Positions 3,800 to 29,322 of a stretch of 64,000 bases of DNA are shown piece by piece. The first letter of the stretch is position 1. Each line of letters begins with the position of its first letter. Below the pieces are notes generated by a model. The model worked only from the letters and a program-made list of their open reading frames with translations. It ran no database searches and was not told where the DNA came from. The DNA comes from Micavibrio sp. (GTDB lineage Bacteria > Patescibacteriota > Minisyncoccia > Moranbacterales > GCA-2747515), in assembly GCA_020718085.1 (NCBI GenBank), contig DYDB01000001.1, positions 218,891 to 282,890 on the forward strand. Direction: 5' to 3'. The translations under genes were made by a program, and so were the position numbers.

Positions 3800-5713
3800 A
3801 TGAATAGCAAGTCACTGAACGCAGTTCCAATTACCCAAAAGGATCTGCGTGAAAAAATGTCAGGTGCCAAGGCTCTAATCAGATCGGCAAAATGGGAGAT
3901 CACGCCGACGGTAAATAAAAATGATCCGAATTACCATCAAAAAATGCTACGCAAACAGGAAGTTGAGGTGAGTATTCGTGGTTTGATAGAAAGGATCAAT
4001 GTTGAAGATGATCTTCTCAATGAAAGGCAGAATCACGTCATTCGTACTATTCGTGAAGCGTTGCAGTTGGCATTGCATGTTGCTGGCGACTACAGCAAAA
4101 GAGCGGGTGTGCCTGCGGTTATGCCAAAAGGTGCAACTTCTTTGCAAAAAACAGAGATCAAAGAAAAGGAGCAGACAGCAGCGGTTATCGCTTTGTTTGT
4201 CATGTGTCGATATATTATATGGAATTTGACCACGGACATCGGTAACAATTCTTTCCTTGCAACGGTCAGTCCTGAATTTACAGATCTTGATCTTTCAGGT
4301 GTGAATCAATCATTGATCTGCGGGACATTCTTTCTGGGAAGATCACTGGAAAAAGAGATGCAGGGAGATGATGCAAGGCTCATCGCGATTGTCTACAAGT
4401 ATGCAGATAGCTTGCAGCGTGACATGATCGATCGCACAATGTCTCTAAAGCACGGCGTGCCATTTACGGACATTTCGTATCAACTGGAAGAAACAGAATT
4501 TACCATTTCAGGTTTTGATACGATGCTGTCAAATGGGGAACGTATACAGGTCAGTGAAGTATATCCTGACCAGGTAATCGGCAATTCAAATGCGGTGGAT
4601 GGAACAGAAGATGGGATGAAAAAATTATTTCTGTATGATCCAATCGCACGTGAAAATCCCATCGGTGCTTTTGGCGGATTCCAAACTGTTAGATTGTATT
4701 CTGGCAGTCCAGGTAATGGTAAGACGCTTGTCCTTTCTGTGGCTCGAACGCTCGGAAGAGACTATGCGGAAGAATCAGGGCTGCCGTATCGAGATCTTGT
4801 TGTGCCAAATCTCGTGTCAAAAATGCAGGGTGAATCGTCGGATCTGGCAATTGAATTTTTAAGGAAATTGTTCGATCCAAACACGATCAATCTCGGCATC
4901 GGCGATGAATTTGAAGCAGTACTACCAGATCATGGAGGTGAACATATTTCAGAAGGTGACAAAAAAGTTGCAGTAGAATTTCTGAAAATGTTCAGTGGCG
5001 TCAGCAGTGTAGAACTTTATAACAAATTGTTCTTAGCTGCGACGAACTATCCGGAAAGTGTGGATCCAGCATTTATGAGCCGTATTAAGGTGCGGTATCA
5101 TGTTGTAGGAGCTGAGACCATCGATGATTACATCAGATTCATCATCTTGAATTTGAAGAAGGTCAACAAACAGCATCCAGGTCTGATCAATCTCAAAAAA
5201 GTAGATTGGGATCGAGACCTCCGAGGATCGCGTATACCAAATAGCTCAGTTATCAATGTTAATCCACTGGCAACAGTGCAAGACATTTATGATCAAGCGA
5301 TTGATATGTACGATCCCGATGACATCCGGTTTTTAGCGCATTTTTTCTATATGATGAAACTTCGCGAAGGAAAGTTCTCATTACGAGATTGTGCAAATAT
5401 CATTGATGCTGTGAAGGCAAGGATTGCTGGGTTTGATGTGCCAATGGAATTTATCAAAGCCAGTGGAGAATATCAGAATGGGAGCATTGAGGACAAACGA
5501 GGACTCATATCCGAGATCGCCTTCGGCCATGTCAAAAAGAGTGGCATTGACGTAGCAGCCCTTTTGGCACAAAATGCTCTGGAATATTCTGGAGAAGCAC
5601 TACGCATGGCAGAGACCAAGCGAGAACGTGATGCCGAGGCAATGGCAGAACAAATGGTTGTAAGTGAGCTTGCTCGGCAAAAGTTCAATAAAAAAATGGG
5701 TATGTCGTCATAA
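3800..5713 (+). CDS. Classic-clade AAA ATPase with a large N-terminal domain
   Basis: Walker A GSPGNGKT, Walker B IGDEFEA, second region of homology ATNYPESVDPAFMSRI. GGAGGA RBS 7 nt before the ATG at 3800 (ORF track 3782). Confidence 0.75.
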   Translation: MNSKSLNAVPITQKDLREKMSGAKALIRSAKWEITPTVNKNDPNYHQKMLRKQEVEVSIRGLIERINVEDDLLNERQNHVIRTIREALQLALHVAGDYSKRAGVPAVMPKGATSLQKTEIKEKEQTAAVIALFVMCRYIIWNLTTDIGNNSFLATVSPEFTDLDLSGVNQSLICGTFFLGRSLEKEMQGDDARLIAIVYKYADSLQRDMIDRTMSLKHGVPFTDISYQLEETEFTISGFDTMLSNGERIQVSEVYPDQVIGNSNAVDGTEDGMKKLFLYDPIARENPIGAFGGFQTVRLYSGSPGNGKTLVLSVARTLGRDYAEESGLPYRDLVVPNLVSKMQGESSDLAIEFLRKLFDPNTINLGIGDEFEAVLPDHGGEHISEGDKKVAVEFLKMFSGVSSVELYNKLFLAATNYPESVDPAFMSRIKVRYHVVGAETIDDYIRFIILNLKKVNKQHPGLINLKKVDWDRDLRGSRIPNSSVINVNPLATVQDIYDQAIDMYDPDDIRFLAHFFYMMKLREGKFSLRDCANIIDAVKARIAGFDVPMEFIKASGEYQNGSIEDKRGLISEIAFGHVKKSGIDVAALLAQNALEYSGEALRMAETKRERDAEAMAEQMVVSELARQKFNKKMGMSS

Positions 5714-23645: not shown

Positions 23646-24851
23646 TTAGGATAAAACAACCATGCGGCGATTCTTGATCACTTGGCACAGATGTTCCGAC
23701 GTGAACAACACTGCATCAAACATGACATGCAACACGATCGCATAGATCAGTCCATGTGTGAATGCAACGTAGAACATATAGATCCCGATCACATAACTGT
23801 TCAACATCCCTGAAGGTCCTTGGTATTTATGACCATCGCGAAATTTTGCGTTGCTCCATAAAATCGCGCCAACATACAAGAGATACGTCCAGTGGTCGCT
23901 ATTTTCAGGCAGAATCGGCATGTGAGCAATTGCGCCAATTCCCAGTGGAATGCAGTAGGTGCTCCACGCTGAGAAAGATAACACGCGTGTGAAAAATTCA
24001 ACGATGCTCATCGAATAATTTTCCTTTGCGCGGCATACGGCTACTGTGATACCCAGACATACTGCCATAGACAGTCCAATGCTGATTGCAAGAGTTGATA
24101 TGTCGGAGGCGAGCCACTGGAAAAGCGCAAATATATATCCGTTGAATTGATAGATCACATTCTCCGGAATATATGCTTTCATTTTCAGCACAACAATGAA
24201 CGAAAAAAGAAAGACCGGTCCAGAGATCAAAAAGGGAACTTCAAATTTTGCCAGAATGAATACACAAAGACATACAGCCAGTGCAACGATGATCCATGGC
24301 AGAAATGCGTTTGAAAGATAGACCGAGATCAATCCAACAAATATCAATAAACTTCGGTGGTTAAACTCTTCGGTTACGCCAGCCTCAATTGATACGAGCC
24401 ATTTGAGTGGCAGGGATTCTGCCATAACGGTTCCGTCTTCATGGGCGTCATTACTTCCAAACCAGTCTAACTGACCACAAAAGAATGCATAGAGCGCCAT
24501 GGGTGTGCCGATTACAACAATCGCTTCCCAGAAATGTCCGTTAACATCCATATAGGAGAACGGATCAAATTCTGTGAAAAACCACTTGCTGAGAACATAC
24601 CAGAGTAAGATGTTGAATAGCATAAGTCCGACCTTGAGGAACATGTTCAAATAAATTCCTGCCCGGACTTTTGCATCTCCTTCGCGCGATGCTGTGAGAA
24701 AATGCTTCCATAAACGGAGTTGATTTTTTGTAAACTGTGCACCGGATACGACTGAATCAATGCCAGTGTTCAGCCAATTGATCCAGGTAATATTTCTGCC
24801 TTTTCGTTGCACGAGACTGCTGAGGATGTATTTTACAAGCATTTCTAACAT
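23646..24851 (-). CDS. Polytopic membrane protein, CPBP (CAAX protease / Abi)-like intramembrane protease family
   Basis: At least 8 TM helices, an EExxxR motif (EEFNHR) and a downstream conserved His. AAAGGAG RBS. Confidence 0.55.
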   Translation of the reverse strand: MLEMLVKYILSSLVQRKGRNITWINWLNTGIDSVVSGAQFTKNQLRLWKHFLTASREGDAKVRAGIYLNMFLKVGLMLFNILLWYVLSKWFFTEFDPFSYMDVNGHFWEAIVVIGTPMALYAFFCGQLDWFGSNDAHEDGTVMAESLPLKWLVSIEAGVTEEFNHRSLLIFVGLISVYLSNAFLPWIIVALAVCLCVFILAKFEVPFLISGPVFLFSFIVVLKMKAYIPENVIYQFNGYIFALFQWLASDISTLAISIGLSMAVCLGITVAVCRAKENYSMSIVEFFTRVLSFSAWSTYCIPLGIGAIAHMPILPENSDHWTYLLYVGAILWSNAKFRDGHKYQGPSGMLNSYVIGIYMFYVAFTHGLIYAIVLHVMFDAVLFTSEHLCQVIKNRRMVVLS

Positions 24852-25067: not shown

Positions 25068-25511
25068 ATGCATGTACAAGAATTTCGCAGAAAGATCTCA
25101 GCTGGAGCAACGATCATCGTAGACGGCAAAGAGCTCGATGTTTTGGAAGTGGTGTTATTTCGCTTTAAAGATAAAAGTTTTTATATCAAGTGTTTTCTTT
25201 CAGATGGCTATGTATTGGCCGATGATGCGCACAGTGATGCATTTGTACTTGTACGTGAAGTGACATGTGATATTACAGAACCATTCCCCAAGGAATTGAC
25301 ATTTGATGAAAAAAGCTTTACATTCCTTTTTGAAGCACATGCTGTAGCGGAACGCATCAGTGGCGAAGAAATTTTCAAAGAGGGTGATAGTGAGACTTTT
25401 TGGGATTATGAATCTGAGGATGGTTCCTATCTGAGTTTGGGCATACATGATCACAGTGGTGAAAGACAGGATTTTTACGGGAAAACCGTTCATGACATTG
25501 AATTTGTGTAA
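25068..25511 (+). CDS. Hypothetical protein
   Basis: 147-aa acidic ORF; no family recognised. Confidence 0.5.
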   Translation: MHVQEFRRKISAGATIIVDGKELDVLEVVLFRFKDKSFYIKCFLSDGYVLADDAHSDAFVLVREVTCDITEPFPKELTFDEKSFTFLFEAHAVAERISGEEIFKEGDSETFWDYESEDGSYLSLGIHDHSGERQDFYGKTVHDIEFV

Positions 25512-25553: not shown

Positions 25554-25847
25554 ATGGAGAAAGAACTAAATTGTTTTGTTGTATCGGCATTGTTTAGCGC
25601 GCACACGTCGCAAGGAAGGTTTTTATGTCAGCAATATTTCAAAAAGTGCATTGAAGCACAAGGCGTGCGGGACGCAAAGGAGATCTTTGAACGATTATTT
25701 ACATCGCACATGGCAAAAAGATATCATCTCGCAGTGGAAGATATTCAATTGCTGCAACATGGATCAATGACCGTAAAAAAAGTGCCATTTGAAAGCTGTA
25801 TTAAAAGTAAAAAGCGTGCAGAAAAAAAATTAGCAAAAAAGAATTGA
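25554..25847 (+). CDS. Hypothetical small protein
   Basis: GAGGGGGAAAG RBS; 97 aa. Confidence 0.5.
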   Translation: MEKELNCFVVSALFSAHTSQGRFLCQQYFKKCIEAQGVRDAKEIFERLFTSHMAKRYHLAVEDIQLLQHGSMTVKKVPFESCIKSKKRAEKKLAKKN

Positions 25848-25859
25848 CTGCATACGCAT

Positions 25860-26197
25860 TTTTCTTGTATGATGTATGCAACCGGAATCAGTGCGTAATC
25901 CTGCTGTGCTGATTCGGCGACGAGATAACACCGGTTAACACTTGTCGTGCACCCATCCTGGCGGATTTTGCAGGGCCATTACTGCAGGGAGTTTCTCATC
26001 GGAGAACGTGCTTGTCTGATTCGGATGTTCTGAATTGTACATGAGACATGCAGTCTGTGAATGAATGGCACAACTCGTGTCCACAAACTACCGCGCGAAT
26101 ACGTGGGTTAGTAGCGGCGAGCGAACAGCACGGCGCATCTGTTGTGGATCACAAAAACAAGCAGCATATCTGCATAAGATATGCTGCTTTCTTTTTG
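25860..26197 (+). ncRNA. Candidate structured non-coding RNA of unassigned family
   Basis: About 330 nt with no ORF of 60 aa or more on either strand. GC-richer than its flanks. Several internal stems (e.g. CCGGAATCAG..CTGATTCGG) and a strong intrinsic terminator at 26159-26197. Contains the 17-mer AGTAGCGGCGAGCGAAC, identical to a conserved 23S rRNA segment. Confidence 0.3.
26159..26197 (+). terminator. Intrinsic terminator
   Basis: AAGCAGCATATCTGCATAAGATATGCTGCTT followed by TCTTTTTG. Confidence 0.6.
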
Positions 26198-26225
26198 ATA
26201 CATGTATAATATATTTTTGCAAATG

Positions 26226-26265
26226 AAAAACGGATCGGATATGAGTTCATATCGGATCCGTTTTT
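26226..26265 (-). terminator. Intrinsic terminator for the minus-strand gene 26288..26689
   Basis: AAAAACGGATCGGATATGAGTTCATATCGGATCCGTTTTT. Confidence 0.6.
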
Positions 26266-26287
26266 ATCGTAATGGGGTCATGATCGT

Positions 26288-26689
26288 CTATGGGAGAAAG
26301 TTGTCGATGATCAGTCTGCTTTCTACAACTACATCAACGGTTTTGAGGATTGTATACTCATTATCATCCTCACCATAGGCAATGAGCTTGATCGATAATT
26401 CACCACAGGCATCACATTTTACATAGGGTCTGATCTGGTATTTTCTACCAGCCATGAACACTCTCATGATAACTTCCTCCTGTAATTGCGGGTCTGGAGT
26501 GTTATCGGTCGTGAGGACACCTTTACTATGCGGTGTCTTGCGCCAATACAGATCTTTTTTACACAAAATTTCGGGTAACATAGAGAGGATCTCCTTTTGG
26601 TTGTGAATGAATCGAATAGTACAATTGAGAGAATATTGTCGTGCAAAATTGTAACAGAACATCGTAACAGAAATATCATGATCGGTCAA
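26288..26689 (-). CDS. Hypothetical protein
   Basis: 133-aa ORF followed by a terminator. Confidence 0.5.
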   Translation of the reverse strand: MTDHDISVTMFCYNFARQYSLNCTIRFIHNQKEILSMLPEILCKKDLYWRKTPHSKGVLTTDNTPDPQLQEEVIMRVFMAGRKYQIRPYVKCDACGELSIKLIAYGEDDNEYTILKTVDVVVESRLIIDNFLP

Positions 26690-26741: not shown

Positions 26742-26790
26742 ACCCCCTCTCCCTCCGGGAGAGGGTTGGGGTGAGGGATAGCGTGAGGGT
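26742..26790. repeat. Nested-hairpin miniature repeat (CCCCCTCTCCCTCCGGGAGAGGGTTGGGGTGAGGG..)
   Basis: Member of the family seen at 18865, 31745, 37365 and 38996. Confidence 0.8.
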
Positions 26791-26907
26791 GAAATTGACT
26801 TTCAGTCAATTTTGACGTAGTATAATATGTTGTACATTAACAGGTTTATAAACTGCATATCTGTTTTTTGCATGTTATTTGGTAGATCAATCTATGGAGG
26901 AAATGAG

Positions 26908-28593: not shown

Positions 28594-28618
28594 TATTAAG
28601 TAGTGATACAATATCACT
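28594..28618. promoter_or_regulatory. Palindromic candidate LexA operator upstream of lexA
   Basis: TAGTGATACAATATCACTATA (inverted AGTGATA/TATCACT) about 25 nt before the lexA start. Confidence 0.35.
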
Positions 28619-28641
28619 ATAATTATATAATAATACAAAAA

Positions 28642-29322
28642 ATGAATGAGACAAAAGAACTTACGCGCAAGCAACATATGATCATGGAGACGATCCGTGA
28701 GATCCTCGAGCAAGGATCCAAAAACCCCACAGCTTATAAAGTGCACAATGCACTCAAGACGGATGGACATGATGTGGGTTCGCTCAAAGGAACAGTGCAA
28801 GTTGTGGAAGCATTGGAAAAGAAGGGAATTCTCAAACGTGATGAGGATCGCAAGATCTACATTGTGAGAAATGAGACATTTATGGATCTGGACAACATCT
28901 TTTCGATTCCCACATACGGTCTTGCCTCATGTGGGGAAGCGTTGGCTTTTGCAGATAATAATGTAGAAGGATATGTGCAAGTATCCAAGAGTCTTTTTCG
29001 CAAAGAAAAACCCGCACAGCTTTTTGCGGTAAAGGCACTTGGAGATTCCATGAACAAAGCTGATATCAATGACAATGATTATGTCGTTTTTGCAAAATAT
29101 GATCATGGTGAAGATCTTGAAGGAAAAATTGTTGTTGCGGTGATCAACGGTATGGCAACGATCAAGATATATCAGAAACTCAAAGGAAATATGATTGGCT
29201 TATTCCCACAATCCAAAAACAAGAAACATCAGCCCATCTATCTTGACCGCTCAGATCAGATCCTCATCGCCGGTGTGTTTCGCAAGGTCCTGCCGACGTC
29301 GTACAGAAAGGGTCGCAAATAA
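28642..29322 (+). CDS. lexA: LexA-family repressor (wHTH plus S24 peptidase)
   Basis: C-terminal S24 domain with the catalytic Ser in GDSM and a Lys in TIKIYQ. N-terminal winged helix. ORF 28603; ATG at 28642. Confidence 0.8.
   Translation: MNETKELTRKQHMIMETIREILEQGSKNPTAYKVHNALKTDGHDVGSLKGTVQVVEALEKKGILKRDEDRKIYIVRNETFMDLDNIFSIPTYGLASCGEALAFADNNVEGYVQVSKSLFRKEKPAQLFAVKALGDSMNKADINDNDYVVFAKYDHGEDLEGKIVVAVINGMATIKIYQKLKGNMIGLFPQSKNKKHQPIYLDRSDQILIAGVFRKVLPTSYRKGRK

Follow-up and report, generated by a model that had tools for sequence, protein, structure and literature searches.

Directly downstream of a small basic protein gene, the DNA analyzed here (64,000 nt in all, hereafter the window) contains a segment of about 330 nt, 25860-26197, which a preliminary description had presented as GC-richer, free of ORFs and provided with its own terminator. 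What does this segment encode? The compositional claim holds: positions 25880-26197 have a GC content of 0.494, whereas the flanks (1 kb) have 0.377 and the 64-kb window as a whole has 0.400. The predicted transcription unit and the gene before it are as follows.

25554-25847, plus strand: orf97, a small basic protein gene of 97 codons, directly upstream of the element, with no terminator between the two
25844-25873, plus strand: sigma-70-type promoter (-35 TTGACT at 25844-25849, 18-nt spacer, -10 TATGAT at 25868-25873)
25880-26197, plus strand: predicted RNA of ~318 nt, its presumed ends set by the positions of the -10 hexamer (5') and of the U-tract in the terminator (3')
26159-26197, plus strand: terminal hairpin T (13 bp, 26159-26189) and U-tract, together forming an intrinsic terminator

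The -35 hexamer overlaps the TGA stop codon of orf97. At the other end, the stem of hairpin T is followed by TCTTTTT (UCUUUUU in the RNA), in agreement with the terminator noted before, and an A-tract 5' of the hairpin makes this terminator bidirectional in form. Measured against dinucleotide shuffles, the folding z-score of the element was -4.0 for the plus strand, with a minimum free energy (MFE) of -116 kcal/mol, and -3.05 for the minus strand. A promoter-like site on the minus strand (26061-26034) was dropped, its spacing not being conserved in the sister species L001 described below. The element holds one imperfect 16-nt direct repeat in two copies, 107 nt apart; a TIGR- or CRISPR-like array was rejected for want of tandem units.

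A housekeeping RNA of an unrecognized family was among the candidates first proposed, together with a scan against Rfam. We ran all 4227 families of Rfam 15 with cmscan over the entire 64 kb, and no match reached the gathering threshold; the families covered include RNase P, tmRNA, SRP, 6S, OLE, raiA, ROOL, GOLLD, riboswitches, T-box, introns, and LSU and SSU rRNA. A permissive scan of 25700-26350 (E <= 10) returned only two terminator hairpins, matched to miRNA and sRNA models at least 200 bits under threshold. Rfam likewise gave nothing on the copies of the element in L044 and L002, and ARAGORN found no tRNA or tmRNA genes in the window. Together with the absence of the element from the syntenic site in relatives, these results speak against a housekeeping RNA. 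Searches of phage and plasmid collections (blastn) found no match to the element, and three pattern scans of viral contigs found nothing. Metagenome contigs scanned with the DNA pattern CGCGAATACG-N7-GTAGCGGCGAGCG were also negative, a weak result because the first anchor lies in hairpin H11, which is absent from the L044 copy; a second scan of metagenome contigs, with the orf97 protein alignment, gave nothing.

Where else does the element occur? The homologs closest to the adjoining DUF4178 gene (25068-25511) come from MAGs labeled Candidatus Moranbacteria/Moraniibacteriota and Parcubacteria group, and the window sequence itself is also found in GCA_017973895.1 and in one groundwater metagenome. 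The window is therefore assigned to a Candidatus Moranbacteria bacterium, a member of the candidate phyla radiation (CPR, Patescibacteria). Among 5.8 billion proteins, orf97 forms only three 90%-identity clusters, and their contigs carry the element. One of these contigs, L043, is a strain-level variant that covers the first 112 nt of the element with 2 changes. L001 and L002 represent a sister species with a complete element. An alignment of 317 positions gives the L001 copy (L001:5327-5650) 86.8% identity to the window copy and shows indels of 1, 4 and 2 nt; for six flanking genes of the same two sequences, identity at third codon positions is 60-69%. A more diverged copy was detected by a covariance model (CM) of the 5' 119 nt (R2), with 29.8 bits and an E value of 4.5e-4 over 376 kb, at L044:63-183. 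This ENA contig, L044, is 1113 nt long and encodes a DUF4178 protein with 85% identity to that of the window; its copy of the element spans 62-395. The identity to the window copy is 61% for the element and 45% for the third positions of DUF4178. In L044 the element lies upstream of DUF4178, that is, on the opposite side of this gene relative to the window, and its unit reads as follows.

L044, 27-55 and onward: promoter TTGACA-17-TATGAT at 27-55, RNA of ~335 nt, terminal hairpin GGGCGGCAUAUCUC/GAGAUGUGCCGCCU with a poor U-tract

The -35 hexamer of the promoter reads TTGACC, TTGACC and TTGACA in L043, L001 and L044, and TATGAT is present in all three, so that the hexamers are conserved in four sequences. 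The spacer drifts, with 7 of its 18 positions differing between the window and L001, while the hexamers stay; the terminator stem is conserved as well. Within the RNA, the window and L044 share the blocks CGGCGAC.AGAU, ACACCGGUUA, CUUGU.GUGCACCCA, UUUGCAGGGCCAU and UCGGAUGUUCYGA, and further UGUGAA, GCACAAC, AGUAGYGGCGAGCGAA and GCRGCAUAUCU.

Beyond these lineages the scans were negative. L006, L040/L041 and L042, whose DUF4178 proteins are 78-82% identical to that of the window, lack both orf97 and the element at the syntenic site, between DUF4178 and the gene that follows it. Across 34 GTDB loci around DUF4178 homologs and the contigs of close homologs, searched by blastn, nhmmer and three CMs, L044 was the only locus with an element, and across 47 loci (389 kb) none other than L044 scored with the three CMs. 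L055, a chimeric contig, was left out. A JGI contig of 1374 nt (JGI 3300075153), with a DUF4178 protein 93% identical and a 97-aa ORF, probably holds a further copy. As far as the scans reached, the known distribution is thus very narrow, namely three lineages of one Moranbacteria group.

The copies also bear on coding potential. That the segment has no ORF is correct for long or conserved ORFs and incorrect for short ones, since mechanical ORFs of 31-53 aa occur on both strands. In the window copy, every one of the six frames is interrupted by stops. The 53-aa ORF on the plus strand is without a conserved start and is frameshifted at both ends. In L001, a public gene call places a 102-aa, Cys/Arg-rich ORF on the minus strand over the element (L001:5312-5620); it is not open in the window, and the call is almost certainly a false positive. 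No ORF is conserved among the copies, the indels are not multiples of three, and Pfam at its curated threshold finds no protein family in the mechanical ORFs. The changes point to an RNA on the plus strand, because the A-to-G changes in helix P1 and the U-to-C change in hairpin H9 (A-U to G-U and G-U to G-C) keep their pairs only there, by way of G-U.

To define the fold, helices were mapped by hand because MAFFT shifts the register of P1 by one base. The following features of the RNA were assigned.

25882-25965, plus strand: 5' three-way junction P0/P1/P2, from helix mapping and covariation
25882-25884 with about 25961-25963, plus strand: P0, CCG with CGG, 3 bp, 1 compensatory change (C-G to U-A)
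25885-25915, plus strand: P1, GAAUCAGUGCGUA / UGCUGUGCUGAUUC, loop AUCC; 2 compensatory and 6 one-sided changes
25917-25948, plus strand: P2, GCGACGAG / CUUGUCGU, with the first of the shared blocks after CGGCGAC.AGAU as inner hairpin; 3 one-sided changes
25947-25979, plus strand: invariant blocks GUGCACCCA (25947-25955) and UUUGCAGGGCCAU (25967-25979), identical in the window, L043, L001 and L044
26018-26036, plus strand: hairpin H9, invariant core UCGGAUGUUCYGA; 1 compensatory and 2 one-sided changes, 1 pair broken in L044
26110-26136, plus strand: hairpin H12, containing the 23S-like motif AGUAGCGGCGAGCGAAC (26110-26126); stem GCGGCG (26114-26119) with CGGCGC (26131-26136)

P0, P1 and P2 are read as a three-way junction because P0 closes it. 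The internal stem CCGGAATCAG/CTGATTCGG, already pointed out in the preliminary description, is real; it is P1, the best-supported helix. In the window, UUUGCAGGGCCAU lies partly in the loop of a hairpin UGCAG/CUGCA, and H9 holds a second copy of CUGAUUCGG, a direct repeat with 25909-25917. Hairpin T shows 2 compensatory and 2 one-sided changes, and its stem sequence GCRGCAUAUCU is itself conserved. Altogether, the 45 hand-mapped pairs of P1, P2, H9 and T comprise 25 invariant, 13 one-sided with pairing kept, 5 compensatory and 2 broken. Covariation in homologous intergenic regions had been suggested as a check, and the copies show seven compensatory pairs, one of them inside the 23S-like motif; these are few events, from 3-4 sequences (three diverged lineages and one strain).

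We compared these counts with randomized controls. In the CM-aligned 5' domain, an alignment that by its fitting leans towards structure, 98.6% of cells are paired, compared with 30-55% when the partners are slid, and 3 pairs are changed on both sides, compared with 0.7 +/- 0.7 in shuffles (6 of 500). RNAalifold on the window and L001 gave 91 pairs with 0 broken and 3 compensatory, a count that is circular. When the 44 substitutions between the window and L001 were relocated at random, the alifold energy was -77.3 +/- 6.0 kcal/mol against the observed -91.05 kcal/mol (z = -2.3; 1.75% of 400 trials). By contrast, L001 does not preserve the MFE fold predicted from the window sequence by itself (21 broken pairs, 19.4 expected at random). 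This global fold should therefore not be trusted, because the substitutions in L001 break it as often as random ones. Two tentative pairings found no support in L044: a pseudoknot of the P1 loop AAUCC with GGAUU, and a helix between GCACAAC and the 3' arm of P2 as an alternative to P2. Judged from the alignments, six helices and about ten invariant blocks of 6-16 nt appear to be conserved, any pairs in the central region or over long range being tentative.

At the level of sequence, the comparison of three lineages shows purifying selection of a non-coding kind, with promoter and terminator signals kept and several helices that appear to covary, and a new sRNA or ncRNA, one of the candidates originally listed, is the one supported. 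With moderate confidence, we consider the element to be the gene for a lineage-restricted structured ncRNA of ~320 nt with a promoter and a terminator of its own, most likely a trans-acting RNA that binds protein or serves as a scaffold. The RNA would be transcribed from its own sigma-70-type promoter over the orf97 stop codon, and transcription would end at the terminal hairpin, which would double as the intrinsic terminator. It would fold into the 5' three-way junction, a central hairpin H9 with an invariant apex, the 3' hairpin H12 and the terminal hairpin T, and the roughly ten invariant blocks, placed between helices or at their tips, could be sites of protein contact. Transcription as drawn, action in trans and protein binding are what we infer from these features. 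A protein-bound RNA acting in trans is favored over a seed-type sRNA because the size of the element, its number of helices and its many invariant unpaired blocks are more like those of protein-binding or otherwise ornate ncRNAs. The element would be a candidate for a new, previously undescribed ncRNA family.

The best surviving alternative, although an unlikely one, is a base-pairing sRNA whose invariant single-stranded blocks, for example UUUGCAGGGCCAU, would act as seeds for mRNAs encoded elsewhere in the genome. Considered as a role for an invariant block, base pairing is a close second to protein binding. The complement of UUUGCAGGGCCAU is AUGGCCCUGCAAA, which looks like a start-codon region, and at 9-13 nt the invariant blocks exceed the length that structure by itself would demand. 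In enterobacteria, MicL and DapZ are type I 3'-UTR-derived sRNAs with an internal promoter. Like them, the element has a promoter located at the end of the preceding ORF or overlapping it, and shares its terminator with that mRNA. However, with ~320 nt and six or more conserved helices the element would be a large RNA for the seed type, and it is much larger and more structured than MicL and DapZ. No seed-target pair was found in the 64 kb: with up to 3 mismatches allowed there are 21 complementary matches, 19.6 being expected by chance, and the one exact match is the element's own sequence. Moreover, unlike the two enterobacterial RNAs, the element in L044 lies upstream of DUF4178 and not downstream of orf97.

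Next in order, and rather unlikely in our view, is a cis-acting structured 3' UTR or terminator module of a DUF4178-orf97 operon with no independent function. Because no terminator separates the two on their common strand, the element is at least also the 3' UTR of the orf97 mRNA, and it occurs together with orf97 in the window species, in L043 and in L001/L002. A mere 3' UTR is nevertheless disfavored because of the conserved promoter, complete before the element in all four sequences, and because of the arrangement in L044, where the element precedes DUF4178 and the last eight in-frame codons before the promoter are unlike the orf97 C-terminus. About 300 nt of conserved blocks and helices also far exceeds what a terminator needs. 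In addition, distant orf97 homologs in other CPR genomes, which sit in unrelated contexts, have no related RNA at their loci; a 16-nt match in L051 was put down to chance.

Concerning the protein itself, the orf97 family is restricted to CPR bacteria: of 1.84 billion cluster representatives, 9 belong to it at E <= 1e-3 (HMMER), and its homologs include P0123-P0129. An AF2 model built on a 10-sequence alignment has a pLDDT of 93 and predicts a beta-hairpin/helix/beta/helix fold, which has no significant match in PDB or BFVD and is not a recognizable RNA-binding fold. Weak matches to the archaeal ribosomal protein LX/eL20 (E 0.08-1, TM < 0.5) were not counted as evidence. Pfam, PHROGs, NCBIfam and PADLOC gave nothing on the neighbors of the element, orf97 included, and a partnership between orf97 and the RNA is possible but unsupported. 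One orf97 homolog, in L050, is located at a tRNA-integrase junction beside HsdM and Fic genes. On the CPR contig L046, the gap at the orf97 homolog contains a T-box-like leader (4470-4570; AAUUAAGGUGGUACCACG and then a terminator), identified by eye, which precedes a mannosyltransferase-like gene and an ileS-type tRNA synthetase.

A further alternative is a riboswitch-like cis-regulatory leader, with the terminal hairpin as the expression platform for a downstream gene. The preliminary description had held that the segment is not upstream of any same-strand gene. This is true in the window, where the next gene is convergent and has its own terminator, but not of the other copies: the same-strand gene begins 143 nt away in L001 and about 75 nt away in L044. 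These distances and the poor U-tract of the L044 hairpin would suit a leader. Still, we judge a leader improbable because the downstream gene differs in each lineage: in the window it is the convergent gene, in L044 it is DUF4178, and in L001 it is a 431-aa gene that has a promoter of its own. The 431-aa gene, for its part, keeps the promoter and the operator-like motif seen in relatives without the element, and no riboswitch of Rfam matches.

The remaining alternatives start from the 23S-like motif. The 17-mer AGTAGCGGCGAGCGAAC at 26110-26126 is, as first noted, identical to 23S rRNA (E. coli nt 241-257), and the identity extends not one base further on either side. It sits at position 235 of the RNA, about as far from the 5' end as its counterpart in 23S. 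Conservation of the element is highest in the 55-nt block that contains the motif, where the window and L001 differ by one change. In L044 the motif reads AGUAGUGGCGAGCGAAA, with 15 of 17 positions kept. In hairpin H12, whose loop begins AGCGAA, a C-to-U change of L044 is matched by G-to-A in the 3' strand (C-G to U-A). The 23S copy of the motif stands between CCCCC and GGGG, runs able to close a loop around it, and these are absent from the element. The local structure differs from that suggested by the 23S flanks, because covariation indicates that the 5' half of the motif forms a helix with a segment downstream of the motif. A 16-mer of the motif also appears in papers on E. coli rRNA and insect 28S work, which would fit a very widely conserved LSU element.

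How surprising is such a match? By a hand estimate, ~0.04 matches of 17 nt to one rRNA operon are expected by chance per 64-kb window, and ~2e-4 inside the element. The view that the 17-mer is unlikely by chance is therefore right only to a moderate extent, as the window also has a chance 15-mer match to rRNA. This 15-mer, ACATTGAGCCTTGAT at 1842-1856, is identical to a sequence of the E. coli rRNA operon; it was taken as chance and serves as a yardstick for the 17-mer. The resemblance of the motif to 23S may be due to chance, convergence or mimicry.

If it is mimicry, the RNA could be a CPR-specific ribosome-related decoy in which AGUAGYGGCGAGCGAA, displayed on H12, copies the conserved LSU element. 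The small RNA would then be bound in place of 23S, whether by a toxin that targets rRNA, by a factor for assembly or modification, or by a ribosomal protein. Sites that mimic rRNA are carried by the ribosomal-protein mRNA leaders of L1, L10 and L20. The element resembles these in its exact 17-nt copy of a very conserved LSU sequence, 15 nt of which are kept in L044, and differs from them in not lying beside a ribosomal-protein gene. Such a decoy would mimic rRNA in trans from a locus that is not a ribosomal-protein operon, perhaps in concert with orf97, the small basic protein encoded next to it, and we regard it as a long shot.

Derivation of the element from rDNA is not supported. Compared by blastn with E. 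coli rRNA as the reference, the other 23S and 16S matches are at most 19 nt long and none is collinear, and the LSU covariance model does not match the element. Hence an rRNA-derived fragment and a degraded protein-coding pseudogene, both raised at the outset, are not supported: the exact 17-mer at nearly the same distance from the 5' end and the 102-aa gene call in L001 are outweighed by the end of 23S similarity at 17 nt, by stops, frame-breaking indels and the absence of a Pfam match, and by purifying selection with a conserved promoter, so that a 23S fragment or a decaying gene is already largely refuted and very improbable.

We return to the structured ncRNA that we prefer. Among known RNAs, raiA, OLE, ROOL and GOLLD are orphan large structured ncRNAs of AT-rich bacteria that were found as GC-rich intergenic regions. 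As with raiA motif RNA, OLE, ROOL and GOLLD, the element is a stand-alone gene with its own promoter and terminator, is enriched in GC relative to the genome, interleaves helices with invariant single-stranded blocks and has no obvious cis target. It differs from them in matching no Rfam sequence or structure, in its far narrower known distribution and in its size of ~320 nt. The ncRNAs of CPR bacteria are almost unexplored because the organisms are uncultivated and their genomes are mostly draft MAGs. One system described from CPR bacteria and phages is that of TIGR arrays, whose tandem repeat units are processed to 36-nt guides and which have Nop-domain Tas proteins (PMC12045711). The element is likewise a non-coding RNA locus in Parcubacteria-group genomes beside uncharacterized proteins, but it has neither tandem units nor a Nop-domain neighbor. 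As it stands, the element is a solid but narrow orphan ncRNA candidate. Its three diverged copies are able to seed a covariance-model search of Patescibacteria assemblies; should the family prove broader, it would be a new structured RNA class for a major bacterial branch, and a proven function for the 23S-identical motif would make the element a rare example of a free-standing RNA that mimics rRNA.

Several features of the neighborhood deserve mention in their own right. A 401-aa ORF on the minus strand (23646-24851), between a DnaJ-domain gene and DUF4178, matches no family in Pfam, PHROGs, NCBIfam or PADLOC; it is absent from L001, where these two genes adjoin, and looks like a recent insertion. 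Between the RNA and a 458-aa gene lies another minus-strand ORF (26288-26689; 97-133 aa), without a family match and absent in L001. It has its own perfect 19-bp bidirectional terminator at 26226-26265 and is a second lineage-specific insertion beside the element. GC-rich hairpins CCCTCTCCC..GGGAGAGGG with adjacent GGGGTGAGGG/CCCTCACCCC recur between genes in different CPR genomes (window 26745-26790; L040:4590-4655; L050:3745-3790) and may be a REP-like repeat family or shared terminators. In the Parcubacteria contig L040, a diversity-generating-retroelement pair (bAvd and an RVT_1 reverse transcriptase; L040:861-2271) is found ~2 kb upstream of DUF4178. Finally, a motif TTGTAC(T/A)TTAACAG, which is CTGT-N6-ACAG-like, stands just 3' of the promoter of a 421-458-aa gene in five genomes, at these sites.

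Window, 26829-26846: TTGTAC(T/A)TTAACAG motif
L001, 5713-5726: the same motif
L006, 4540-4555: the same motif
L040, 4740-4755: the same motif
L042, 1170-1185: the same motif

One or two genes beyond the motif there is a gene for a LexA-like S24 peptidase (28603-29322 in the window), and the motif is possibly the SOS/LexA operator of these Moranbacteria.
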